From contig CAJWLU010000001.1 of the NCBI GenBank assembly GCA_913043225.1, positions 128,001 to 192,000 on the forward strand: a stretch of DNA of 64,000 nucleotides. The letters are read 5' to 3'. The stretch comes from an uncultured Acidobacteriota bacterium (GTDB lineage: Bacteria; Acidobacteriota; Vicinamibacteria; Vicinamibacterales; UBA8438). Under the pieces are notes generated by a model. That model made no database searches, was not told the origin of the DNA, and saw only the letters and a program-made list of their open reading frames with translations. Below, piece after piece: positions 2 to 46,565 of the stretch (the first letter of the stretch is position 1; every line of letters starts with the position of its first letter). The position numbers were made by a program, and so were the translations under genes.

Positions 2-190
2 CTGGCCGGAGTGTCGCTGATGGTGTTCTTCGTGCTGGCTTGTCAGTGCATGAGCACGATCGTGGTCGTCAAGAAGGAAGCCGGCGGGTGGGGCTGGCCG
101 ATGTTCATGCTCGGCTACATGTCGGTGCTCGCCTACGGCGCGTCGCTGCTGGTCTATCAGACCGGACGGCTCATGGGCTGGGGACTCTGA
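2..190 (+). CDS. feoB: Ferrous iron transporter FeoB, C-terminal end (5'-truncated by window)
   Basis: Frame 2 reads LAGVSLMVFFVLACQCMSTIVVVKKEAGGWGWPMFMLGYMSVLAY...*, matching the FeoB C-terminal gate pattern (C-x-S-T...K/R-E-x-G-x-W-x-W). Not in the ORF track because the start is missing. Confidence 0.85.
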   Translation: MAGVSLMVFFVLACQCMSTIVVVKKEAGGWGWPMFMLGYMSVLAYGASLLVYQTGRLMGWGL

Positions 191-21713: not shown

Positions 21714-23060
21714 CTACAAATCGCTCAACCGCCCCGTGCTGTCCGAGATCCGGTCGACATGCACGCCCACCTTGTCGAGCAGCGTGAGCCCGAGATTCAT
21801 GAACGGCGTGTCCATCTCGTATTTCAGGTGCCGACCACCCGCCAGCTGACCGCAGCCGTTGCCCACGAGCGTCACCGGCAGGTTGTAGGGCGTGTGATGG
21901 TCGCCATCGCCCATGCCGGTGCCATAGAGCATGATGGTGTGGTCGAGCAACGTGCCGTCACCATCCGGGGTGTTGTGCAGCCGATCCACCAGCTTGGCGA
22001 AGAGCGACATCTGGTGGGTGTTGATCTTCGTGTACTGCTGGATGTTGTGCGGATTCAGCTGGTGATGCGACACGCTGTGGTGGGCCTCCGGCACGCCGAT
22101 ACCCGGATACGTGCGGCCGCTCAGCTCACGCGCCATCTGGAAGCAGCTCACTCGAGTGACGTCGGCCTGGAACGCCAGCGCGAGCAGGTCGAACAGCACC
22201 TCGACATGCTGGTCGTACTCGTCGGGCACTCCCGCCGGCTGCGAGAGCTGCGGCAGCGGCGTCGAGGCATTGTTCTCCTCGGCGCGCTGGATACGACGCT
22301 CGATCTCACGCACCGCGTCGAGGTAGTCCTGGACGGCCGACCGATCGCGCAGGCCCAGCCGCCGGTCGAGCTGGCCGATACTCTCGTTGACCGAGTCGAG
22401 GATGCTGCGGTCGGTCCGCATCTGCGCCATCCTGGCCTCGACACTCCCACCGTCGCCGAACAGCCGCTGGAAGACCACACGCGGATCCCGCTCGTGCGGC
22501 AGCGGGGTGGTCGCCGTTCGCCAGGACGTCGAGTTCTGGTAGGTGCAGCTGTAGCCGTTCTCGCAGTTGCCGACCGTGAAGCTCGACTCGGTGGTGAGCT
22601 CAAGCGACCGCAGCGACGTGTCGGCGCCGAGCACGTCGGCCGCATACTGGTCGACCGTCTTGCCAGCCTCGATGTCGGCCCCCTCGGTCCGCTTCGGCAA
22701 CACTCCGCTCAGCCAGCCGCCGTGGGCCCGCGTGTGCACACCGCCGCCCTCGTTCGGGCTGACCAGTCCCCTGTTGCTGAGTCCCGACACCACGACCATC
22801 TGGTCGCGATAGGCCTCAAGCGGCTTGAGGATGGGGGTGATGGCATACCCGGTGCCTCCGCCGCCAGCCGGGTGGAAGTTGGGCAGGAACATCCCGTTCG
22901 GCGCATAGATGAAGCCCAGCCGCGGAATGGCGGGCGCCGCCGCGGTCCGGCTCGTGGCCGTCAGCGCGGGTGCCATGGCGTCCAGAAACGGGAGGGCCAC
23001 CGTAGCCCCGAGCCCCCGGAGCACGGTCCGACGTGGCAGCGCCTTCTTGGTGACGATCAT
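21714..23060 (-). CDS. DUF1552 (HXXSHH) protein with Tat signal (cassette 1)
   Basis: LPRRTVLRGLGATVALPFLDAM, CENGYSC, FQRLFG, SILD, HHSVSHH, GTLLDHT. Confidence 0.9.
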   Translation of the reverse strand: MIVTKKALPRRTVLRGLGATVALPFLDAMAPALTATSRTAAAPAIPRLGFIYAPNGMFLPNFHPAGGGGTGYAITPILKPLEAYRDQMVVVSGLSNRGLVSPNEGGGVHTRAHGGWLSGVLPKRTEGADIEAGKTVDQYAADVLGADTSLRSLELTTESSFTVGNCENGYSCTYQNSTSWRTATTPLPHERDPRVVFQRLFGDGGSVEARMAQMRTDRSILDSVNESIGQLDRRLGLRDRSAVQDYLDAVREIERRIQRAEENNASTPLPQLSQPAGVPDEYDQHVEVLFDLLALAFQADVTRVSCFQMARELSGRTYPGIGVPEAHHSVSHHQLNPHNIQQYTKINTHQMSLFAKLVDRLHNTPDGDGTLLDHTIMLYGTGMGDGDHHTPYNLPVTLVGNGCGQLAGGRHLKYEMDTPFMNLGLTLLDKVGVHVDRISDSTGRLSDL

Positions 23061-25498
23061 GACTCTGATCTCCTGTGCAGGAACGGATAGCTGTTCACAA
23101 TGCCCACGATGATCGACTGCATCGAGTAGTCGGACGCGGCCGCGTCGCGCACGATACGGCGCACGGCCGGCATGTCGTAGTGCCCCAGGCCTCGACCGAG
23201 CGCATAGGTCATGAGCTTCTCGGTCACGGTGCCCACGAAGCGATCGGGACGCGCCACGAGCGCCTCGCGGAGCTCGGCTACCCCGTCGAACGCGGTCCCA
23301 TCTGGAAGCACCCCGGAGGTGTCGAGCCGGTTGAACGATTCGTCGACGACCCGAGCGCGGCCGATCGCATCGAAGCCCTCGAGCGCGAACCCGGCCGGGT
23401 CGATCATCGAGTGACAGGCCGCACACACCGGGTTGGCCCGATGCGCCGACAACCGCTCGCGGACGGTCGCCACCCGGGCCTGCGTCTTGCGATCGTCTAG
23501 GGCTGGAATGTTGGGCGGCGGATCCGGGGGCGGCGTCCCGAGGATGTTGTTGAGAATCCACTTGCCGCGGAGCACCGGCGAGGTGCGAATGGCGTGGGAG
23601 GTCAGCGTCAGAATGCTGCCCTGTCCCAGCAATCCACCCCGAGCACTGTCGGCAGGCAGGCTCACCCGCCGGAAATGCGACCCTTGCACGCCCGGGATGT
23701 CGTAGTGCCCGGCCAGCCGACCGTTCAGGAACGTGTAGTCGGCGGTCAGCAGATCCAGCACGCCGCGATCGTCCCGCACGATGCTGTCGAAGAACAGCTC
23801 TGTCTCGGTGATCATCGCCTGCCGCAGCGTCTCGTCGAACGCCACCGCATGGGGGTCGCCCGGCCGGATCACCGTGGCCAGGTTCCGCAGCTGAAGCCAC
23901 TGGCCGGCAAAGTTCGCGGTCAGCGCTTCGGACCGAGGGTCGGCGACCATTCGGCGCACCTGCCGCTCGAGCTCGGCGGGCTCACTCAGTGCGCCACGCT
24001 CGGCCACGCGGAGCAGCTCGTCGTCCGGAATGCTGCTCCAGAGAAAGAACGAGAGTCGCGACGCCAGCTCGAGGTCGCTCACCGCATACGGCGCGTCGGG
24101 ACGGGCCTCGTTGGGATCTGCCTCGATTCTGACCAGGAACTCCGGGCTCACGAGGAGGCGCCGGAGGGCGAGCTCGATGCCATCCTCGAAATCGCCTCCA
24201 CTCGCACGCCCCATCTCGTAAAACTCGAGCAACACCGAGAGGTCCGCTTCCGCCACGGGACGGCGATAGGCGCGTCGCGCGAGCGACGACAGAATCTCTC
24301 GCGCGCACCCGGCTTCTTCGGACGCCGCGGCAGGCTGACAGCGGAAGACCCTGTCTCGACTCGGCGTGGTTCCTGCCCCACGCGCATCGAACGGCCCCGC
24401 GATGGTGACGCTCGACACGAACGGAATCGAGCCACCTGGACCGCCCGAGTTGCCCGAGGTCCGCGGGTTCTGGAACCGCTCGCGGACCTGCTCGATGAGC
24501 ACCGGTGGCTTCCGATGGAACGCCACCCCGATGTCGCGGGGACCGGCGTCGATCGAGACACGGCGCTCGATCGTCGAGCCGCTAAAGTAGACGCTCTCAC
24601 TTCCGTCGCCCGCCGGGCCCAACGTGATCAGCTCGAGACGAGCACCATCCACGGTGATCTCGAGCGGATGCTCCTCGCTCAACCCGCGGGTCCCGCTCAG
24701 CTGGATGGTGAGGTCGTAGTCGGCATCGAGCGGGATCTGCTGACTGACCAGCATGCCGCCACGGGTGCCAAAAGGCAGACCGGTGGCCCGCTCATGCTGC
24801 TGCTCGTCCTGGGCGGCCCGATAGGTCTCGGAAAAGGGCGCCGGGGGTGGGCTGCCCACCGCCAGGCGGCTGATGGTCCGGCTGGCTTCGAGATAGCGCT
24901 CAAGGAGCGACTGCGACATACGCAGCACGCCCCCGATGTTGTCGAATCCGAAGCTGGCGTCGTCGGCCGGGAGGAAATCGTCGACCGGAATCTCGAGAGC
25001 GAGCAGGTCGCGGATGGCGTTGCGATACTCGGCGCGGTTCAGGCGATGAAAGGTTGCCGTGCGCCCCGGGTCCGGTCGCGCGGTCGCCGCCGCGTCGAGC
25101 CCGCTCTCGAGCCACGCGCGAAAGCCGTCGAGCGTCGCCTCATCCGGGCGCGGCCGGCCGGCTGGCGGCATCAGCCCGGCACGGAGCTTTCGGACCACCG
25201 CCTCCCAGTGGGCGGCGTCGGTGGACAGGGTCTCGAGGTCCAACGAGTCCAGGGCCAGTCCCACCGCACGCAGCTGGGACGTCAGAGGCGTGGAACGCCC
25301 AGACTCACCGTCCACGAGCGCCTGGTTGTGGCAGGTGACACAGTAGCGACCTAGGAGCGCACGGTACTCGGTGGCCTGCGCGGCGGCCATCGTCGGCTGC
25401 CACGCGAACCCGCCCAGGACCAGCGCAATCGCCGCCGCAGGTGTCGACCAGCGACACCACCGCCCGCCGACGTTCCGACGTTCGGGACAGGATTCCAT
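23057..25498 (-). CDS. DUF1587/1595/1592/1588/1585 protein with two CxxCH motifs (cassette 1)
   Basis: YCVTCH; RLNRAEYRNAIRDLL; ELASRLSFFLWSSIPD; TSPVLRGKW; CAACH; EKLMTYALGRG; ATGA overlap with the DUF1552 gene. Confidence 0.9.
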   Translation of the reverse strand: MESCPERRNVGGRWCRWSTPAAAIALVLGGFAWQPTMAAAQATEYRALLGRYCVTCHNQALVDGESGRSTPLTSQLRAVGLALDSLDLETLSTDAAHWEAVVRKLRAGLMPPAGRPRPDEATLDGFRAWLESGLDAAATARPDPGRTATFHRLNRAEYRNAIRDLLALEIPVDDFLPADDASFGFDNIGGVLRMSQSLLERYLEASRTISRLAVGSPPPAPFSETYRAAQDEQQHERATGLPFGTRGGMLVSQQIPLDADYDLTIQLSGTRGLSEEHPLEITVDGARLELITLGPAGDGSESVYFSGSTIERRVSIDAGPRDIGVAFHRKPPVLIEQVRERFQNPRTSGNSGGPGGSIPFVSSVTIAGPFDARGAGTTPSRDRVFRCQPAAASEEAGCAREILSSLARRAYRRPVAEADLSVLLEFYEMGRASGGDFEDGIELALRRLLVSPEFLVRIEADPNEARPDAPYAVSDLELASRLSFFLWSSIPDDELLRVAERGALSEPAELERQVRRMVADPRSEALTANFAGQWLQLRNLATVIRPGDPHAVAFDETLRQAMITETELFFDSIVRDDRGVLDLLTADYTFLNGRLAGHYDIPGVQGSHFRRVSLPADSARGGLLGQGSILTLTSHAIRTSPVLRGKWILNNILGTPPPDPPPNIPALDDRKTQARVATVRERLSAHRANPVCAACHSMIDPAGFALEGFDAIGRARVVDESFNRLDTSGVLPDGTAFDGVAELREALVARPDRFVGTVTEKLMTYALGRGLGHYDMPAVRRIVRDAAASDYSMQSIIVGIVNSYPFLHRRSES

Positions 25499-25570: not shown

Positions 25571-26563
25571 CTAGGGTGAGGCGGCCAGGCCGAACCGGGA
25601 CGTGAACGCCGAGCTCGGCGCGCGGCGAACGTGATCGCCATCCCGATCCCGGGTGAGGAACAGCACGGCGAGGCCTTCCTGCTCGGCAAGCCGCAGCCCT
25701 GCCTCCGGGCCGAGCACATAGAACGCCGTGGAGAGGATGTCGGCGGCCAGCGGGTCGGCGTGCCACACGGTCACCGACGCCGAGCGGGCCACCGGGCGAC
25801 CGGTGCGCGGATCGAGCAGGTGGGTGACACGAGTGCCATGATCCCAGGACCGCTCAGAGTCACCACTCGTGGCCAGGGAACCGTGGTCGAGGGTGAGCTC
25901 GGCGACAACCCGGGTGCGGTGCGCCGGATGCGCCAGTGCGACCGCATGCGCTCGCCCAGACACTGCCACCTGTCCTCCCAGATCGACCAGCCACGACTCG
26001 CCCCCCTCTGCCCGAGGCAACCGGGCCAGTGCGGCACCTTTGCCGAAGGCGCCGGCGTCGAGCGTAACCTCCCTAGTCCGGACCAGCGTGCAAGCAGGCT
26101 CGTCGAAACGAAGGTACTCAAGGCCCGAACGGCCAGCGGCCGAGGACCATTCATCCTCGGTCGGCACTCGCCCCTCCTCTCGCAATCCCCACGCGTCACG
26201 CCAAGCCCCAATGGCCGGATCGAATGCCCCGTCAGTGGCGTCATGCCACATGACCAGGCCTGACCAGAGGCGGCAGACAGAATCGGGAAGCTGAAACGGA
26301 TCGCCGAGGGGGTGTCGGCTCGCCCGACTCAACACACTGGAGTCGCGCCAGGTACTGAGCTCGGCCTCAGTCTGTTCCAGGCTCCGGAGCAAAGAATCGA
26401 GTCGTTCTCTGGCCATGCGGCCAGTGTTCGCCTCGGCAACCAGCGTGACCCGGGTGCCCATGAGATACACGACCCGCTCGGCCGCCACCGGCTGCGCGTC
26501 GACAAGTGCAGCCGAGCCTGCCACCAGGCCGACGACCAGCGCTGCAGCGGCCGACACCCGCAT
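25571..26563 (-). CDS. apbE: FAD:protein FMN transferase (flavinyl transferase)
   Basis: LMGT, GAFDPAIG, DAGAFGKG, DLGG, LATSG, HLLDPRTG, ADILSTA; signal peptide. Confidence 0.85.
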   Translation of the reverse strand: MRVSAAAALVVGLVAGSAALVDAQPVAAERVVYLMGTRVTLVAEANTGRMARERLDSLLRSLEQTEAELSTWRDSSVLSRASRHPLGDPFQLPDSVCRLWSGLVMWHDATDGAFDPAIGAWRDAWGLREEGRVPTEDEWSSAAGRSGLEYLRFDEPACTLVRTREVTLDAGAFGKGAALARLPRAEGGESWLVDLGGQVAVSGRAHAVALAHPAHRTRVVAELTLDHGSLATSGDSERSWDHGTRVTHLLDPRTGRPVARSASVTVWHADPLAADILSTAFYVLGPEAGLRLAEQEGLAVLFLTRDRDGDHVRRAPSSAFTSRFGLAASP

Positions 26564-26570
26564 TGGAGAC

Positions 26571-27041
26571 TCAGGAAGGTTGCCCGACAGTTCTTCCGAG
26601 CGAACGGAGGGCGGAGGGACTGGTCAAGCGCCACCCGATAACCAAATGCACACCATACCCAACGACGAAGACCAGGCTGGTCGCCACATGCAACCAGATG
26701 GACGCAGTGACCCAGGAGGGACTCGATGCGACCTGTACAAAGTAGCCTGACAACGCCATCAGCGAGAAGCTCACGACCGAGGTCCATCCCGACCGCCGGT
26801 TCCGGAGATCCCGACTGAGGATCTTTCTCAGGGAGTGCGACCGAAAGAGGATGCCGAAGAATGCGATGAACACGGGAGCCGCCAGCAAGTGCGTCGACAG
26901 CATCATTGGCTGCCAGGGATGGTTGGCAATCGAAAAAGGGTCGGTCGGCGTGACGAAATACTTCATGTAGAAGTACACGACCCCAGTCACGGCGACCACG
27001 CCATGGAACGTGTTGAACGTCCACCGCTCCCACCGGGTCAT
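26571..27041 (-). CDS. Four-TM membrane protein with His in TM segments (DUF4405-like putative b-type cytochrome)
   Basis: TFHG, STHL, RSHS, WLHV, GVHL within or next to hydrophobic helices; lies between the FMN-binding gene and apbE. Confidence 0.6.
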   Translation of the reverse strand: MTRWERWTFNTFHGVVAVTGVVYFYMKYFVTPTDPFSIANHPWQPMMLSTHLLAAPVFIAFFGILFRSHSLRKILSRDLRNRRSGWTSVVSFSLMALSGYFVQVASSPSWVTASIWLHVATSLVFVVGYGVHLVIGWRLTSPSALRSLGRTVGQPS

Positions 27042-27056
27042 GTATCAGTCCGAGCC

Positions 27057-27620
27057 CTATTGGTCGGTCTCCGCAAGTACCTGGTCGATCGCCATCACCC
27101 GCCGTGTGGCATCGGTGGCGGCGTGGGTGGTCAGCGTAGCACCGACTATCGGGCGAATCAGGCGGTGCATCGCAAGGTCGTCGTTCAAGGGGTGTCCCAC
27201 GGCCTGACCGAGCCATCGGTCCGGAGCGATGTACATGCGGGGCTCAAAAAAGGCTGTGACGTCGATACGTTTGAGGGTCCCATCGTCGGCGAGAGAAATG
27301 AGCAGGCTCTCCCGCTTGGTCCGCACGACGTGCGTATCGATATAGGCGCGACCGATGACCCGTCCACCCTGGGTGGCCACGTATCGCGCAATCAGGCCGG
27401 TATCAAGGTCGACCCGGGAGATCTCTTCAATCGAAGTTCGCTGCGCGTCAGTCAGGAAGACTCGCTCAGCCGCGATTTCCGCACCGGGGAAGAGGGCGGC
27501 GAGTGCCTGTTCTCTAGTAGGCAACCCGCCGTCTTGTGCGGAAAGCGTGGAACCAGCCACCAGCCACACAAGGCCGGTCGCTACGAGCACACGGTGTCTA
27601 ATGGCTGGTTCCAACATCAA
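27057..27620 (-). CDS. Exported FMN-binding (flavinylation substrate) protein
   Basis: Signal peptide; AYIDTHVVRT, FFEP, IVGATLTT (variant of the [S/T]GA[S/T] motif); two genes upstream of apbE. Confidence 0.75.
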   Translation of the reverse strand: MMLEPAIRHRVLVATGLVWLVAGSTLSAQDGGLPTREQALAALFPGAEIAAERVFLTDAQRTSIEEISRVDLDTGLIARYVATQGGRVIGRAYIDTHVVRTKRESLLISLADDGTLKRIDVTAFFEPRMYIAPDRWLGQAVGHPLNDDLAMHRLIRPIVGATLTTHAATDATRRVMAIDQVLAETDQ

Positions 27621-27646: not shown

Positions 27647-29050
27647 CTAGAAGGCATACCCCAAGTTGATGTTGAACTGGTTAACTGCGTCGTTAGCGTC
27701 GTTGCTCGCCCACGCATGATCCAGCTTCAGCACGATGTTCGGAATTGGCTTCAGTTCAATGCCCGCAGTGATGAACCTAATGTCGGTCGAAAGGCTGCGA
27801 GTAAACCCGACCGGCATCACGGCCTGGGTATCGACCACCTCGTAGCGGATATATGGTGTCAACGCGACCCCGGCATTGCCGGTCACCTGGGACAACACGT
27901 CGTAACCGAACGAAATGTAGGAACCCTGCATCTGCTCGGCAACGCCCTTGCTTCCACTCAGCCCCAAGGCCTCGTTAAGCTTCGCCGCATCGCTCAGATT
28001 CGCCCGTGCAAACAGCGCACGGATGTCAACACCTCGAACCTGTGCCTGCCCGTGCAGATCCCAGATCGTGGTTTTGATGCCATATTCAATCCCGTCAACA
28101 TCGATCTCACCCTGACCGGAGTCCCCACTGTAGAGACTGGCACCGAAGAACACTCCTGGCGTCGGGGTGACATCCACGCGGCCGGTGAACGCTAGGCTTG
28201 TGGACTTCGCCTTGGCACCCTTCTGCCGTCCCCCACGAACGCCTTTCGACGAAAACTTAGATCCGTTGAAGCCGTTCATGACATAGGCACGGAACGCCAC
28301 GTTACTGAACGCCCCGTAGATGCCACCGCCGTTCTCCCGCCAAGTAGACGGAATAATCCGATTCTCAGTAACCGGACGCTCGGCACCAATAAACACGTTC
28401 GGCTCGTGGTACTCGTTGACGAGTCCCATGGGCGCAAGCAACATGCCACCGCGAAGGCCAAAATTCTCAGTTGCCTGATAGTCGACGTAGGCGAACTCGA
28501 CGTAAATTTCCTTGCCGTGCTCAACCTCGATCTCGGAGTTGAACAGGAACTTATCGTTAAACCGATACCCCGTATACAGGATGGCGCGCAAGAAGTCGGA
28601 CTTGGTATACGCATTGGTCGGCGCGCCGCCTTGGTTCGTATCTGCGTAGTTCTCGATCAGCAATTCACCGTAACCGGCGATAGAGACACCCCGCTCCACT
28701 CCATAGGTGGCTGCCGCGGACGGTGCCAGACCTAGTGCACGGGCACGGTCCACGTCCACTGGCTCAGCGACATCGCCCGCTCGGAGACGCTCGACCTCCT
28801 CGGCCAGTGTGTCGAGTTGACGCTGGAGCTCCGCAACGTCTGGCTGCTGCTCGACCTCCTCGGCGCCTTCGGGCGATTCCTCGCCAGCGGCTTCGTTGGT
28901 GTTCTCAGGGGCCGGAGCGCCCGCTGCGCCGGCTGTCTGGGGCAGCACGACACCTTCCTGCTCCTGAGCGACGGCTGGCGCGGCAAGAACAAATGCGACC
29001 AGCAAGAAGAATGTCGAACGGAGCAACTGCAATATTCGTCGAATTGTCAT
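27647..29050 (-). CDS. Outer-membrane beta-barrel porin with N-terminal coiled coil
   Basis: Signal peptide, coiled coil (ELQRQLDTLAEEVERLR), IAGYGEL, FNSEIEVEH, VEFAYVDY, NEYHEP, IIPSTWRE; C-terminal LGYAF beta-signal. Confidence 0.85.
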   Translation of the reverse strand: MTIRRILQLLRSTFFLLVAFVLAAPAVAQEQEGVVLPQTAGAAGAPAPENTNEAAGEESPEGAEEVEQQPDVAELQRQLDTLAEEVERLRAGDVAEPVDVDRARALGLAPSAAATYGVERGVSIAGYGELLIENYADTNQGGAPTNAYTKSDFLRAILYTGYRFNDKFLFNSEIEVEHGKEIYVEFAYVDYQATENFGLRGGMLLAPMGLVNEYHEPNVFIGAERPVTENRIIPSTWRENGGGIYGAFSNVAFRAYVMNGFNGSKFSSKGVRGGRQKGAKAKSTSLAFTGRVDVTPTPGVFFGASLYSGDSGQGEIDVDGIEYGIKTTIWDLHGQAQVRGVDIRALFARANLSDAAKLNEALGLSGSKGVAEQMQGSYISFGYDVLSQVTGNAGVALTPYIRYEVVDTQAVMPVGFTRSLSTDIRFITAGIELKPIPNIVLKLDHAWASNDANDAVNQFNINLGYAF

Positions 29051-29070
29051 GGGCTTATCCCTCTACCTTG

Positions 29071-29100
29071 TTGCAAGCCCAGGCGGTCTTTCCTTAAAAT
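29071..29100 (+). promoter_or_regulatory. Putative sigma70 promoter of the antisense sRNA
   Basis: TTGCAA (29071-29076), 18-nt spacer, TAAAAT (29095-29100). Confidence 0.55.
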
Positions 29101-29107
29101 GTTCACC

Positions 29108-29197
29108 GCTGGACGCTGCATCTCTGTTGCACCTGAATGGGTGTAGCGCGTGTTCAGCTGGCCCGTTGGGTGTCACCGCACCCCGCGGGCCTTTTTT
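29108..29197 (+). ncRNA. Candidate ~90-nt small RNA antisense to the porin-operon leader
   Basis: Starts 8 nt after the -10 box. Hairpin 29108-29158 (GCTGGAC/GTTCAGC and GCTGCATC/GGTGTAGC, with G-U pairs valid only on +), then terminator hairpin 29160-29191 and T6. Confidence 0.55.
29160..29197 (+). terminator. Rho-independent terminator
   Basis: GGCCCG-TT-GGGTG-TCACCG-CACCC-CG-CGGGCC followed by TTTTTT. Confidence 0.7.
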
Positions 29198-29248
29198 GTC
29201 TCGGCGGCTGGCGCACAGGCAAGCGCACAACTCAAAAGCCGAGACTGA

Positions 29249-29269
29249 AACTGAGACTCAGTCTCAGTT
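29249..29269. promoter_or_regulatory. Fur-like operator palindrome 1
   Basis: Perfect 10-1-10 palindrome AACTGAGACT-C-AGTCTCAGTT; overlaps and is preceded by extra GAGACT/GAAACT hexamers; just downstream of the porin-operon -10. Confidence 0.7.
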
Positions 29270-29278
29270 ACTGGACAA

Positions 29279-29307
29279 AGTGTATATCCGACCGATCTTG
29301 TCGTCAA
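29279..29307 (-). promoter_or_regulatory. sigma70 promoter of the porin-FMN-apbE operon
   Basis: Minus strand TTGACG (29307-29302), 17-nt spacer, TACACT (29284-29279). Confidence 0.7.
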
Positions 29308-29315
29308 TCTAAAAA

Positions 29316-29330
29316 TGAGACCCGGTCTCA
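29316..29330. promoter_or_regulatory. Fur-like operator palindrome 2
   Basis: Perfect 7-1-7 palindrome TGAGACC-C-GGTCTCA just upstream of the -35. Confidence 0.65.
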
Positions 29331-29475
29331 AGACTTTCCAGAGCCCCTCCCCCCTGGAACTTAAGGAATTAAGGATCATTTACCCGAGTAAAGAGGAAGC
29401 GTTGCGGAGGAGAACAGTCTGTTCGAACCGATCCATCGACTGCTGGGCCTTACCTGCAACTGAGCTGGCAAGACA

Positions 29476-29525: not shown

Positions 29526-30608
29526 TTACTCGTCGTCGGTGGGTAGCGTGGTCTGGTTCAGCAGCAGCTTCTGCACCCGCCAGTTGTTCATGTCGGCGAC
29601 AATGAGGGTGTTCTCGTCCCGGCAGGAGATGCCGTGGAGCCAGTTGAACTGACCGGGGGCTCGACCAGACCCACCCAGCCAGCCGAGGATCTCGCCGTCG
29701 AGCGACAACTTGTAGATCCGGCCCGGATGCTCGTCGGAGGCGAACAGATACTGCGTCTCGCCGCCGGAGACGCACAGGGTCCAAGGCGCGGTGTTGTCCG
29801 GCATATTCGGACGCGGATTCCCCAGTACCGGCTGCATGTTCTTGTCATACGGCACGTTCAGGAGAATAGTCTTCACAAAGTTGCCGTCCGAGTCGTACTT
29901 CTGGATACGGCGGTTCGTGCGGTCGGCCACGTAGACAAAGCCGTCCCGGTCGACCTGTAGGTTGTGCGGCAGGCGAAGCTGATCGTCGCCGGTGCCGTAA
30001 CTACCCCACGACTTGATCCAGTTGCCCCAGGGATCCATCTTGGCCACGCGCGAGTTCATGTAGCCATCGCTGACGTAGATGTTGCCGTCAGCATCCCAAC
30101 CCACATCGGTTGGACCGGCGAAGTAGCCGTCCACGTGACGGGCATTCTCGGGAGCCACGTGCTCGTAGTGGTCGAAACCCTCAGGTCGGCGCCCGAGGTT
30201 CAGCACCACGTAGCCGGACGGGTCGAATTTGGTAACGGCGTTAGTGCCCTTATCGACCACCCAGAGGTTGTCCTCAAGGTCGAAGCGCACTGCATGGCCG
30301 TAGCCGAGCCCATAGACGCCCTGGCCGAGTTCGCGAACGAAATTTCCCTGATCGTCAAATTCGAGCAGGTTGGTTGTGGCATTGCCATAAAGCGGTCCGG
30401 CGGTCGCCGTGCCAGGGTGATTCAGCAGGATGATATGACCCTTGGAGTTCTCGGCCACCGCCAGCGTTTCACCGAGGTTCATGCTCGGCGGATACTTAAG
30501 GAAGTTCGGCACCGAGACATACGGAATCTCAGGCGCGTCGACGGTCTGGGCAGACGCGGGAACCGCAACCAACATCAGCGCGACCGCGGCGAGGATCAGA
30601 CGTTTCAC
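29526..30608 (-). CDS. Exported NHL-repeat (PAL-like) protein
   Basis: AAGGAGG then GTG start; HAVRFD, PTDVGWD, YVSDGYMNSRV, PHNLQVD, YVADRTNRRIQ. Confidence 0.85.
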   Translation of the reverse strand: MKRLILAAVALMLVAVPASAQTVDAPEIPYVSVPNFLKYPPSMNLGETLAVAENSKGHIILLNHPGTATAGPLYGNATTNLLEFDDQGNFVRELGQGVYGLGYGHAVRFDLEDNLWVVDKGTNAVTKFDPSGYVVLNLGRRPEGFDHYEHVAPENARHVDGYFAGPTDVGWDADGNIYVSDGYMNSRVAKMDPWGNWIKSWGSYGTGDDQLRLPHNLQVDRDGFVYVADRTNRRIQKYDSDGNFVKTILLNVPYDKNMQPVLGNPRPNMPDNTAPWTLCVSGGETQYLFASDEHPGRIYKLSLDGEILGWLGGSGRAPGQFNWLHGISCRDENTLIVADMNNWRVQKLLLNQTTLPTDDE

Positions 30609-31001
30609 GGAGACCTCCTTGAAGCCCGGTCGCCGACCGGGTGCACACGAACAGTGGATCTCGAAAGTCGTATCATAGCTCACTCTAGGTGGCTGATCAG
30701 CCAGGGAACCCAAGGCCGCCCGGCTGTGTTAGGGTGGCGTTCCAGCGTGCGGCCACGGCAGCCGGGAACCCGGCCGCCACGCCGATGCTGACAGAAATCC
30801 GACGGTGAGAATCCGAATTATCAGCTTCGCGTCATAGCCTGCCACCTTCGTATTGCTCTGTCAGATCTGCCCGGGACACATCGTCCCACTCTTCATCACG
30901 GCCGATTTGCCGACCACCCCGGTGCGGTGAGGAGCCGGTCACCAATCGGCGATGGGTGTCGTTCTGATCACCTGCGTCTTACGGCGTAGCCAAGTTGTGT
31001 C

Positions 31002-43734: not shown

Positions 43735-43759
43735 GACAATGAGATTGCGTCTCATTATC
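43735..43759. promoter_or_regulatory. Fur-like box upstream of bfd
   Basis: GACAAT-GAGATT-G-CGTCTC-ATTATC (hexamer F-F-x-R-R arrangement); overlaps a putative TCGACA-17-TATCAA promoter. Confidence 0.75.
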
Positions 43760-43782: not shown

Positions 43783-43977
43783 GTGACGAGACAGCCACCA
43801 CCCGAGCGGACCGATGTCGTCTGCGAATGCCTGCAGGTGACCGAGTGCCAGTTGCTGGCCACGCTCACCCAGGGGGAAGTGCAGACGCTCCGCGACCTGC
43901 GCCAAGCCACTGGGGCCGGCGACGGCTGCACCGCCTGCCACCACCTGCTCAAGCAGTACGTCCAGCGCCGCGCCTGA
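43783..43977 (+). CDS. bfd: Bacterioferritin-associated ferredoxin ([2Fe-2S], BFD-like)
   Basis: VCECLQVT...TGAGDGCTAC (CxC...CxxC); adjacent to bfr; Fur-like box upstream. Confidence 0.85.
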   Translation: MTRQPPPERTDVVCECLQVTECQLLATLTQGEVQTLRDLRQATGAGDGCTACHHLLKQYVQRRA

Positions 43978-44022: not shown

Positions 44023-44499
44023 CTAATCGTGGCCGCCCAGCTGCTCTGTCAGGTAGTTCTCGAGTCCAACACTCTCGATTCGGAAAAGTTGGGTCTCGAG
44101 CCAGTCGACGTGCTCCTCAGACTCGGACAGGATCGGTTCGAGCACCTCACGCGTCCCGTTGTCCTTGAGGCTGGTGCACAGCTCGATCGCGGCGTTGTAG
44201 GTTTCGACTCCTCGCTGCTCCAGTGCGAGATCTACCTCAAACTGCTCCTTCACATTGGTGCCGACCCGGATAACGTCGTAGCGCGCGATCTCCGGCGTGC
44301 CTTCGAGGAAGAGGATGCGATCGATCAACTTTTCGGCATGCTTCATCTCGCCCATCGACTCATGCACGTGTTTCTCACCCAGGATTTTGAAGCCCCAGTT
44401 GTGACACATCTTGCCCTGGCAGAAGTACTGGTTGATCGCGGTCAGCTCAATGGTAAGCGCGCCGTTCAGCGCGTCAATAACTTCTGGTTTGCCCTGCAT
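44023..44499 (-). CDS. bfr: Bacterioferritin
   Basis: MQGKPEVI, ELTAINQY, EMKHA (heme Met), RILFLEG, SEEHVDWLETQ; ferroxidase residues intact. Confidence 0.95.
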   Translation of the reverse strand: MQGKPEVIDALNGALTIELTAINQYFCQGKMCHNWGFKILGEKHVHESMGEMKHAEKLIDRILFLEGTPEIARYDVIRVGTNVKEQFEVDLALEQRGVETYNAAIELCTSLKDNGTREVLEPILSESEEHVDWLETQLFRIESVGLENYLTEQLGGHD

Positions 44500-44537
44500 T
44501 CTCGCTCCCCCTCTAGCACCCCTATTGTAGCGCCGCC

Positions 44538-46565
44538 CTAGCGCAGCGTGGCGAAGATCGAGCTGTAGTCGTCGGTCCAGATCCGCTCGACCGGCGGACC
44601 GGACCAGGCTGCGGCCGCCGGCGCTAGGGCCTCGGCCAAACGGTGGGCAGAGGTCAGCACCACCCACTCGGCGGCGAACGCCCCTAACCCGTCGTCGGTG
44701 CTGACCAGCGGAAAGGCATCGTACTCCAGCGTCTGTGCCAAACCTCGCAACACTGGTTGCAGATCGAGGTGACGGTTCGAGATGTGAACGGCGATGGTCC
44801 CGCCCAACGCCAGATGGCTGGCGTAGAGCTCGAAGGCTTCCTTCGTCAGCAGATGCACGGGAATGGCGTCGCCCGAGAAGGCGTCGACGACGAGGAGATC
44901 GAAGCGTCCGGGCCGACCTGCGCTCAGCTCCGCATCAAGCAGGGCGCGAGCGTCGCCCACCACGGTCTCCACCGACGCTGCCGACTCGGCCAGATAGAAG
45001 AAGTGGTTTTCGGCGATGCGGACCACATCCGGGTCCACCTCGTAGAAACGAAAGCTGTCATTCTCGCGGCCATGCGCCGCGATAGTGCCGGCGCCAAGGC
45101 CGATGCCACCTATGCGGAGCCCTCTCGCATCGGCACTCATGGAGTGAAGGGCCGCGATGGTGAGCCCCACGCCGCTGTCAATCCCGTAGTAGGTGGTAGG
45201 TAGGGCGCGCAGTTCTTCCTCCACATACTGGCTGCCGTGCACCGTGCTCCCGTGGTAGAACGACCGCGCAACGACAGACTCCCTCATGCCCACCTCACGG
45301 TCGTAGACCCGAAGGATGCCGTAGAAGTTGCGGGCCGACGTGACCAACTCGCCCCGGCGGTCCGATGTCCCCACCGACAACCAGATCACGGCCACACCCA
45401 GCGCGGCTACAGTGACAATCGGCCGCCAGGTGGCCCGCCATCCTCGACCCTCTTCGTGACCTATAGTGACCGCCAGCAGCACTCTAGTGGCGACCAGCGC
45501 CAGCGGAAATTCCCAGGTATCAATGAACACCCGTGGCGCCACCTGCGACGCCAGAAAGCCTCCCAGCGCACCACCAGCCGCGACCATAAGGTAGAAGTCG
45601 GTCAACCGTGTCGGATGTGGCGCAAGCCTGGCCAGCTCGCCATGACACACCATGCAGCTCGTTACCAGCGCCAGCGCATAGACGCCGATCTGGACAGGCA
45701 GTCCCAATGGGGCATCAGCGCCCGCCCGCCAGTACAGCAGCACGACGGCGGCGAGACCCAGCACGTAAGCAGTGGTCCAGACAGACCGGCGATACCACCG
45801 GGAGTGGTCGAACGAGACAACAAAGGTCGTGAGATAGAGCGCGAGCGGCAACACCCAGAGAAACGGGACCGCGGCCACGTCCCGGGTCAGCTGACTGGTG
45901 GTAGACAGCAGAACCAATGACCCGCAGGCGGCCAGCGAGAGCCACAACCCGCGTAGCCCGATCGCCACAAACGGACCACTCGGCGCCTCGGCCCTCAGCA
46001 AGCGCTGACGCGCCGACCACCCGATGACAGTCACCAGGATGACGTAGCAGACAAACCCGGCCGACCAGAATCGAGCCTGGGCCTCAAGCGACAGAAACGG
46101 CTCGACCAGAAACGGATAACTGACCAGCCCCAGCAGCGACCCGGCGTTAGAAACGGCAAACAGCCGGTAGGGCGATCCAGTCTCAGCTGCGCGCCAGTGC
46201 TGCAGGAGCGGACTTGACGCGGCCAAGATCAAATACGGCACCCCGACCAGTCCGGCTAACTGCAGCGTGATGCTCCACGTCGGTCGAGAAGGATCGACCA
46301 GGCCCACGTCGAGCGCCAGCGGCAGGAACGTCAATGACGCCGCCATCAGGGCGGCATGGACGATCGGCTGCCGAGCACCATCCAGCCTAGTGAGCCGATG
46401 CGCGTACCAATATCCTCCCACCAGCAGCGCCTGGAAGAAGAAGAGACAAGAGGTCCAGACCACGGCGCTGCCACCGTAGTGAGGAAGCAGCAGACGGGCC
46501 ACGAGCGGTTGCACGAGAAAGAGGAGCACCGCGCCGAGAAACACGGCTGCGGGATAGGCCGTCAC
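44538..46565 (-). CDS. Fused membrane domain / spermidine-synthase-like SAM-binding protein
   Basis: GGSAVVWTSCLFFFQ, SNAGSL, CHGEL, RNFYG, HGSQ, GLGAGT, YEVDP, GDAR, DAFSGDAIPVHLLT, WTDDYS; GTG start assumed. Confidence 0.85.
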   Translation of the reverse strand: MTAYPAAVFLGAVLLFLVQPLVARLLLPHYGGSAVVWTSCLFFFQALLVGGYWYAHRLTRLDGARQPIVHAALMAASLTFLPLALDVGLVDPSRPTWSITLQLAGLVGVPYLILAASSPLLQHWRAAETGSPYRLFAVSNAGSLLGLVSYPFLVEPFLSLEAQARFWSAGFVCYVILVTVIGWSARQRLLRAEAPSGPFVAIGLRGLWLSLAACGSLVLLSTTSQLTRDVAAVPFLWVLPLALYLTTFVVSFDHSRWYRRSVWTTAYVLGLAAVVLLYWRAGADAPLGLPVQIGVYALALVTSCMVCHGELARLAPHPTRLTDFYLMVAAGGALGGFLASQVAPRVFIDTWEFPLALVATRVLLAVTIGHEEGRGWRATWRPIVTVAALGVAVIWLSVGTSDRRGELVTSARNFYGILRVYDREVGMRESVVARSFYHGSTVHGSQYVEEELRALPTTYYGIDSGVGLTIAALHSMSADARGLRIGGIGLGAGTIAAHGRENDSFRFYEVDPDVVRIAENHFFYLAESAASVETVVGDARALLDAELSAGRPGRFDLLVVDAFSGDAIPVHLLTKEAFELYASHLALGGTIAVHISNRHLDLQPVLRGLAQTLEYDAFPLVSTDDGLGAFAAEWVVLTSAHRLAEALAPAAAAWSGPPVERIWTDDYSSIFATLR

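Follow-up and report, generated by a model that had tools for sequence, protein, structure and literature searches.

We analysed a 64-kb stretch of DNA (64,000 nucleotides; "the window" refers to all of it) from a bacterium of the order Vicinamibacterales. The locus of interest is an operon on the minus strand that begins with the gene for a porin-like outer-membrane protein and includes the gene for an ApbE flavin transferase (Table 1). Neither Pfam nor NCBIfam has a family that matches the 467-aa porin-like protein, and the closest clusters in the Atlas are 'Porin family protein' and another in which 35% of the members have Porin_O_P. (Directly downstream of ApbE is an 813-aa protein, 23057-25498 on the minus strand, with the 'planctomycete' PSD/PSCyt domain set DUF1592/1588/1585/1587/1595.) The operon promoter is kept as TTGAC(C/G)..GGTCGGATATA across the family and the order. 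Based on this conserved promoter, the mRNA is predicted to start near 29272, which gives a leader of ~220 nt.

Between the porin start codon and the minus-strand promoter lies a unit that reads in the other direction. It has a promoter-like sequence, a long hairpin (P1), a GC-rich hairpin (P2), and a run of T, and we predict that it encodes a small RNA (sRNA). The predicted mRNA start lies upstream of the entire sRNA gene, and the predicted start sites of the sRNA and the operon are ~165 bp apart. A first-pass annotation, made from the sequence of the window alone, had described these elements as an antisense unit inside the leader. All of them are at the positions it gave, and comparative data (see below) place them far beyond chance. 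The unit does lie entirely within the predicted leader of the minus-strand operon and is convergent with that operon's conserved promoter.

Table 1. Features of the porin-ApbE locus, and palindromes and sRNA copies elsewhere in the genome. Promoters, the sRNA, and Fur-box-like sites are predictions.
Feature	Position	Strand	Basis or remark
ApbE flavin transferase, operon	25571-26563	-	PF02424, E = 3.9e-55
156-aa membrane ORF, operon	26571-27041	-	weak DUF4405 / cytochrome b561 hints
187-aa ORF, operon	27057-27620	-	
Porin-like outer-membrane protein gene, 467 aa, first in operon	27647-29050	-	ORF; ATG at 29050
sRNA promoter: -35 TTGCAA, 18-nt spacer, -10 TAAAAT	29071-29076 (-35), 29095-29100 (-10)	+	promoter scan, 9/12
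Predicted sRNA, ~90-93 nt	29105-29197	+	fold and covariance model R1, 82.8 bits here
P1 long hairpin, conserved base GCUGGAC / GUUCAGC with near-invariant G-U pair	29108-29158	+	fold, alignment
P2 GC-rich hairpin, then T6	29160-29191, then 29192-29197	+	intrinsic-terminator-like 3' end
Promoter-proximal Fur-box-like palindrome TGAGACTCAGTCTCA	29252-29266		between operon promoter and sRNA 3' end
Operon promoter TTGACG-17-TACACT	29279-29307	-	reads toward porin gene through sRNA gene
Distal Fur-box-like palindrome TGAGACCCGGTCTCA	29316-29330		upstream of operon -35
NHL-repeat gene, upstream of operon	29526-30713	-	
Third palindrome site in the window	43740-43754		
Other palindrome sites	G000:C1:125659, C3:193131, C3:195063, C3:197426, C2:150375, C3:165894, C6:98124		
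sRNA copy, porin-ApbE operon	the window copy	+	R2 44.3 bits
sRNA copy	C51:5696-5800	+	R2 66.5 bits; new; TTGCAC-17-TACAAT; opposite CbiX-like gene; cut at contig end
sRNA copy	C3:195147-195250	-	R2 64.3 bits; in training set; antisense in flavodoxin leader
sRNA copy	C3:193026-193127	+	R2 49.5 bits; outside training set; antisense in leader of CbiX-like 593-aa gene

Two other sequences near the operon promoter may be functional. The promoter's spacer contains an inverted repeat, CCGACC-N5..7-GGTCGG (TTGACCGACC..GGTCGGATATA; 29283-29310, minus strand), which is conserved over the order; it is imperfect in the window and is found also at L229:4170-4197 and most related loci. Its appearance suggests either a second operator or an element specific to this promoter. 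In addition, a T-run comes after the distal palindrome on the minus strand, and a scan marked this palindrome as terminator-like. As it lies just downstream of the NHL-repeat gene, it may double as that gene's terminator.

We then examined the sRNA unit itself. Promoter-like sites are more common in the surrounding 2.5-kb region (3) than in shuffled sequences (0.8 +/- 1.0). The RNA from 29105-29197 (+) has a predicted folding energy of -52.6 kcal/mol (z = -5.61), and none of 200 shuffles were as stable. The reverse complement reaches -38.6 kcal/mol (z = -2.58; 3 of 200 shuffles were as stable). Judging from the sequence, the 5' end of the sRNA would be near 29105-29108 and the 3' end would be the T-run. 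In the window copy, the GC-rich hairpin is followed directly by the U-run, as in an intrinsic terminator. (A simple terminator scan missed this plus-strand hairpin because its stem is bulged, but it is visible in the fold.)

The region does not seem to encode a protein. The plus-strand ORFs that overlap it (28723-29097, 28817-29146, 29049-29312, and 29137-29364) are mechanical ORFs, and the differences in length among relatives are indels that are not multiples of three. We also considered a small peptide, as an ATG that overlaps the sRNA's -10 opens a 15-codon frame in the window; this frame is absent in most relatives, and we rejected it. As the first-pass annotation had proposed, we compared the locus to Rfam (release 15), and the sRNA does not belong to an Rfam family: across the 64-kb window, there were 0 matches at the gathering score. 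Around the locus at E <= 10, there were only chance matches far below threshold, and none over the sRNA (29105-29197).

The palindrome TGAGA-N5-TCTCA does not occur between 29051 and 29105, and the nearest site starts at 29252, 55 nt beyond the terminator. In other words, no Fur operator overlaps the sRNA promoter, as would be the case for an RNA of the RyhB or PrrF type. Since its promoter lacks an operator, the sRNA should be constitutive. As a side observation, the 12-nt stretches on either side of the sRNA's -10 (~29083-29112) show a modest excess of complementarity, in relatives as well (-8.4 kcal/mol observed versus -7.5 kcal/mol permuted; 0 of 200 permutations were as low). In the sense mRNA, these bases might form a hairpin shortly ahead of the ribosome-binding site.

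The unit is widely conserved. We searched 41 related genomes with the DNA of 29051-29340. Two blocks stood out as conserved, one over P2 (29151-29200) and one over the palindrome/promoter region (29238-29330), and blastn placed both in synteny with the porin and NHL genes. When ten of the loci are placed side by side, the plus strand retains TTGCnn, a spacer of 16-18 nt, TAnAAT, GCTGGAC, a variable interior, GTTCAGC, and P2. We built a covariance model (R1) from ten RNAs; each sequence began downstream of the -10, which kept the promoter out of the model. Within the same family, R1 matched 89 of 104 genomes at E <= 1e-3 (72 of the 79 high-quality genomes), mostly with one match each. In a sample of the order, 43 of 151 genomes had matches at E <= 0.01, and 31 of these genomes belong to 14 other families. 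In a sample of the phylum, R1 matched 0 of the 140 genomes outside the order, which doubles as a control for specificity. Named public records with the motif are from Vicinamibacterales, Vicinamibacteraceae, and Acidobacteria. The organism is accordingly an acidobacterium, and we rejected a planctomycete origin, which the PSD/PSCyt domains might suggest. (A pattern search of public records gave 78 matches, and we take ~30 of these, in unrelated GC-rich phyla, as chance.)

To describe the family's loci, we took the best match per genome as well as second-contig matches from two genomes, or 90 loci, and left out L088 and L111 (secondary or weak matches that lack this context). In 85 of the remaining 88 loci, TTGnnn-16..18-TAnnnT is found directly upstream, and it ends at most a few bases from where the model starts. 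(The exceptions are L037 and L057, with a 15-nt spacer, and L081, which has no -35.) The bases of the -10 are T (88), A (88), any (7 A, 29 C, 34 G, 18 T), A (84), A (88), and T (88), which is the sigma-70 pattern TAnAAT. In 87 of the 88, the porin gene lies upstream and is encoded on the opposite strand (L047 is at a contig end), and in 84 of 88, the palindrome GAGA-N5-TCTC lies within 450 nt downstream, with the operon's minus-strand promoter between or beside the palindromes. The least regular part of the unit is its tail: across the family, the 8 nt after P2 include 2-8 T, and 44 of the 88 loci have at most 4. Given the poor T-run in many relatives, termination there is uncertain outside of this genus. 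Overall, these sequence comparisons indicate that the conservation of the unit is not due to chance.

If the conserved element is an RNA, which strand is it on? For the ten loci, the RNAalifold consensus has 22 pairs on the plus strand (-33.3 kcal/mol) and 19 pairs on the minus strand (-23.3 kcal/mol). We then aligned 95 sequences with the guidance of the model (alignment A4) and dropped 7 secondary or partial rows to leave 88. Across the 22 pairs in these 88 rows, there are 1,584 Watson-Crick pairs, 234 G-U, 40 A-C, and 78 others. The key pair of P1 is G-U in 47 of the 88 rows (and A-U in 34 and G-C in 6), all of which pair on the plus strand; on the minus strand, those 47 would be A-C. In all 95 rows, 94.4% of the cells are paired and 15 of the 22 pairs have changed on both sides (0 of 500 shuffles reach these values), while slid controls give 33-42% pairing. 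In P2, 8 of 13 pairs have changes on both sides. The minimum free energy also favours the plus strand; this holds for 86 of the 88 family loci (on average, a difference of -8.7 kcal/mol) and for all 20 loci from other families (-12.8 kcal/mol).

A caveat is that fitting an alignment to a model biases it towards the structure in that model, and that related sequences are not independent. We also considered a separate set of 31 rows from other families and second copies. Without 5 partial rows, the 26 sequences have 451 Watson-Crick pairs, 70 G-U, 7 A-C, and 44 others. Furthermore, a fresh MAFFT alignment of 25 of them, given to RNAalifold without any model, recovered both P1 and P2, with 13 of 19 pairs compensated. 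The excess of G-U over A-C (234:40) implies that the plus strand is the structured strand; the structure is not best supported on the mRNA strand, as would be expected for a sense-strand leader element. The first-pass annotation had used the G-U pairs of the one sequence to argue for the plus strand, and both sets (234:40 and 70:7) agree with it. The covariation analysis upstream of homologous porins that it suggested reveals compensatory changes in both helices. Its claim of an independent plus-strand unit thus has comparative support from the recurring promoter, two compensated helices, and the asymmetry between G-U and A-C.

What does the operon have to do with iron? TGAGA-N5-TCTCA has 10 sites in this genome, versus 0 for a control pattern. 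Two of these flank the promoter of the porin-ApbE operon. One is 33 nt ahead of a feoA-feoB fusion gene; one is ahead of a flavodoxin gene, inside the spacer of a TTGAGA-17-TATGTT promoter; and one is ahead of a CbiX-like 593-aa gene. The site at 43740 is ahead of a 64-aa Bfd-like ORF (43783-43977) and beside a ferritin-family gene (44023-44667, minus strand). The remaining four have other or unclear neighbours. The genome encodes one FUR-family protein (94.6 bits). We read the palindrome as the candidate Fur operator of this clade, which would mark a candidate iron regulon. The first-pass annotation had described the operon promoter as iron-controlled, and this fits, in the sense that the promoter is flanked by a palindrome that also precedes feoAB, bfd, and flavodoxin in a genome with one FUR-family gene.

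The unit is not confined to porin operons. We retrieved 20 loci from elsewhere in the order, outside this family; in these, the palindrome and the same minus-strand promoter come after the RNA. For 13 of these 20 loci, we checked the gene on the opposite strand: 11 encode TonB-dependent receptors with a Plug domain, one encodes a PepSY_TM protein, and one encodes a homologue of the porin. With a second covariance model (R2), built from the other-family and second-copy sequences, we found four copies of the sRNA in this genome, each antisense in a leader (Table 1). The copy at C3:193026-193127 has the canonical palindrome and promoter. Three of the four copies are flanked by Fur-box-like palindromes, and the fourth is truncated by a contig end. 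A DNA search of the genome with 29071-29200 did not find a second close copy, and the paralogues emerged only with the covariance models. The four copies have a mean column identity of 57%, so each is perfectly complementary to its own leader alone. On the other hand, the sequences of the base of P1 and of P2 are similar among the paralogues. R2 also identified one to two copies each in four other complete or near-complete genomes, and further contexts include Kelch-repeat, CbiX-like, and PQQ-propeller genes.

Two further arrangements are of note. In G115 (L235:1701-1804) and G107 (L088:1701-1803), promoter-less copies are found in the sense orientation, ~40 nt upstream of a lipoprotein gene and directly past the stop codon of the preceding gene. 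These copies may have been reused as a terminator or 5' UTR. And in G011 (C1:5749606-5750666), as elsewhere in its genus, a pair of sRNA units point towards each other across ~850 nt and are antisense to two genes that diverge from a common Fur-box region.

We also asked where the unit has been lost. The porin has a protein match (E <= 1e-20) in 103 of the 104 family genomes, with none in G003; in G054, G074, G094, and G095, the match is only to paralogues that are ~41% identical. We examined ten genomes in which an orthologue of the porin is present and the family scan for the sRNA found nothing. Two of them (G016 and G053) have divergent copies that score 27.5 and 26 bits with filters off. 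In G098 and G100 (L268 and L269), the copies have decayed and their promoters are degenerate too. Five others (G042, G017, G014, G020, and G093) have short leaders in which the palindromes and promoter directly abut the ribosome-binding site, and in G052, only the -35 and the spacer remain. (The loci of these six sRNA-deleted lineages are L261 and L263-L267.) The unit is thus lost or decaying in 8 of the 10 genomes, and sister species in the same genera, such as G051 and G005, retain it. As the porin is kept in these genomes, the sRNA unit is dispensable, and the short leaders imply that the long leader is there for the sRNA gene alone.

Is the region transcribed? Eight marine RNA runs contain parts of this stretch of DNA, all as unstranded contigs, and we examined four of them. 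Such contigs do not give the strand, the ends, or the level of an RNA, and DNA carry-over is possible. Run X1 includes this organism's porin coding sequence (at least 99% identity); the contigs of this organism in X1 leave a gap over 29033-29139, which proves nothing. Contigs from close relatives in X3 cover the leader (record 16, 28864-29172, and record 17, 29150-29296). In X2, record 13 joins the 5' part of the porin coding sequence to P2 and ends 2 nt past the T-run. Record 5 of X1 is a 203-nt contig whose loose ends are both identical to the homologue of the sRNA region in G018; assuming colinearity, it would begin with the base that follows the sRNA's -10 and extend to ~7 nt past the operon's -10. 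These contig ends are suggestive, but they are contigs only and come from one study, so they give no basis for the ends or the strand of the sRNA. That the sRNA region is present in RNA libraries is what these data establish, and no more than that.

Taken together, we think it probable that 29105-29197 (+) is an independently transcribed sRNA gene that acts mainly in cis, within the Fur-box-controlled leader of the porin-ApbE operon. If iron is present, a Fur-like repressor would shut the operon's promoter. The constitutive sRNA would pair perfectly, over ~90 bp, with any leaky transcript of the leader, and the duplex would be marked for double-strand cleavage and decay. (RNase III, which could carry out the cleavage, is encoded in the genome.) If iron is absent, the derepressed operon promoter would fire through the sRNA gene and the sRNA promoter. 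This convergent firing would lower the output of the sRNA, by collision or occlusion of polymerases, and the remaining sRNA would be out-titrated. The expected outcome is a tight off state and a threshold- or switch-like induction. The complement of the sRNA stops ~55 nt short of the start codon and leaves the ribosome-binding site uncovered, so direct occlusion of that site is unlikely, and any effect must use RNA decay, attenuation, or interference. We favour action in cis because the same geometry is found at unrelated iron-starvation genes and because the copies have diverged within one genome.

Alternatively, the sRNA could be real and work chiefly in trans, or in both ways, with its position in the leader serving as a sensor: convergent transcription in low iron would silence the sRNA and make it a regulator specific to iron-replete conditions, with a logic opposite to that of RyhB. 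The similarity of the paralogues at P2 and the base of P1 is not needed for pure cis action, and so it hints at a shared partner or a role in trans. Also, sequence and structure are kept over the order while the overlapped gene varies (porin, TonB receptor, flavodoxin, and others), and a motif in the interior of P1, GC(A/G)ACC, is partly conserved in the family. However, no seed-like motif is common to all subgroups, and the four copies in this genome have diverged to the extent described above (57%). Hfq was not found in the genome, which is 96% complete. Furthermore, every copy with a promoter is convergent within a leader, which would be superfluous for an RNA that acts purely in trans. We consider this alternative to be unlikely. 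(We also noticed, by eye, possible pairing of the P1 motif GCAACC with the mRNA complement of the -35, and of the sRNA's interior with start-codon regions; since neither extends beyond some of the groups and this genus lacks both, we set them aside.)

Two other explanations would do away with the regulatory sRNA, and we give little weight to either. The promoter and the stable hairpins might form a duplicating and largely neutral cassette that spreads among Fur-box leaders with little regulatory consequence. There are multiple copies (four here, and one to two in each of four other genomes), several lineages have lost the unit and kept the operon, and two genomes have the promoter-less sense copies upstream of a lipoprotein gene. 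But the promoter and the helices, with their compensatory changes, persist across the order; the unit always has the same orientation and placement with respect to the Fur-box promoter; and 29071-29200 has no second close DNA copy in the genome. We consider a neutral cassette very unlikely, and the explanation to which we assign the lowest probability is that the conserved structure is a sense element of the minus-strand leader, either riboswitch-like or protein-binding, and that the plus-strand hexamers are incidental. Such an element would recur in the leaders of co-regulated genes, as the unit does; most of its pairs are Watson-Crick and so are possible on both strands; and the excess complementarity (-8.4 versus -7.5 kcal/mol) flanks the -10, where only the mRNA is transcribed. 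Against this, there are the ratios of G-U to A-C (234:40 and 70:7), the A-C mismatch that the minus strand would have at the key P1 pair in 47 of 88 loci, and its weaker consensus fold (-23.3 versus -33.3 kcal/mol). A sense element would also not account for the sigma-70 pattern of the -35 and -10, at a spacing of 16-18 nt, in 85 of 88 loci, or for the degenerate promoters of the decayed copies in G098 and G100. The first-pass annotation had named hairpins kept solely as minus-strand leader structure as the result that would overturn its reading, and the comparison came out the other way.

If the sRNA acts mainly in cis, as we favour, then abundant soil and marine Acidobacteria would sharpen Fur's control of outer-membrane iron uptake with antisense RNAs that are embedded in leaders. 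The comparative signal is clean, with a defined promoter, a covarying structure, and natural deletion lineages as ready controls. Also, with one cassette on different genes, it would be practicable to tell antisense pairing apart from transcriptional interference. A broader and more speculative proposal, which we find rather unlikely, is that a portable cassette (a Fur-box promoter and a leader with a convergent sRNA gene) has been attached repeatedly in Vicinamibacterales to unrelated iron-starvation genes (porin-ApbE, TonB receptors, flavodoxin, CbiX-like, and PepSY_TM). Polymerase collision would then be the iron sensor for sRNAs that are specific to iron-replete conditions and that act on their own leaders as well as, by way of P2 and the conserved base of P1, on a shared partner or on each other's leaders. 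If true, this would be an inverse-RyhB layer of regulation. To our knowledge, Acidobacteriota is a phylum without characterised sRNAs, and in a limited search of the literature, we did not find a paper on noncoding RNAs of Vicinamibacter or on sRNAs of Acidobacteria that are linked to Fur.

Finally, we compared the unit to known systems. The promoters of RyhB and PrrF carry a Fur box, and these RNAs are produced in low iron. They are also small RNAs that are tied to the Fur regulon, but here there is no palindrome over the sRNA promoter, the predicted logic is inverted, and their Rfam models had no match. Two antisense RNAs that act on iron-related genes lie within coding sequence: IsrR is within the coding part of isiA rather than in its leader, and RNA-alpha of Vibrio anguillarum is several hundred nt long. 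The present sRNA has no relation to IsrR in sequence or structure (the Rfam scan found nothing). As described in excerpts of PMC8635728, IsrR of Synechocystis opposes a Fur-repressed gene that is induced by iron starvation; it is abundant when iron is plentiful and is degraded together with the mRNA, which leads to a threshold and a delay. Going by that description, both are small antisense RNAs against an iron-starvation gene. IsrR differs in that it is opposite the isiA gene itself and is found in cyanobacteria only, whereas the present unit has multiple copies on several unrelated genes. RNA-alpha, from plasmid pJM1, is antisense and lowers fatA and fatB in iron-rich conditions, beside Fur (excerpts of PMC5524678). 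As far as those excerpts go, it is similar in being an antisense RNA on iron-transport genes under iron-rich conditions. It differs in that its synthesis needs Fur and that it is plasmid-borne and single-copy. As1_flv4 is also among the closest cases that have been described (PMC3460422).

The DonS family of Bacteroides is another of the closest described cases. According to excerpts of PMC7366714, these are cis-antisense RNAs of 78-128 nt at many loci with susC homologues, where they oppose the 5' part of genes for TonB-dependent outer-membrane transporters and repress them. DonS, as portrayed there, is likewise a repeated family of cis-antisense RNAs at genes for TonB-dependent transporters. 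It is from another phylum, its signal is glycans and not iron, and it has no relation to a Fur-type operator (we compared the two by description only). The unit is most likely a brake on iron-starvation genes that works by cis-antisense and convergent transcription, similar to IsrR or DonS. Cis-antisense sRNAs against stress-induced or outer-membrane transporter genes are a known kind; what is unusual here is the modularity, as the sRNA unit recurs in several Fur-controlled leaders.
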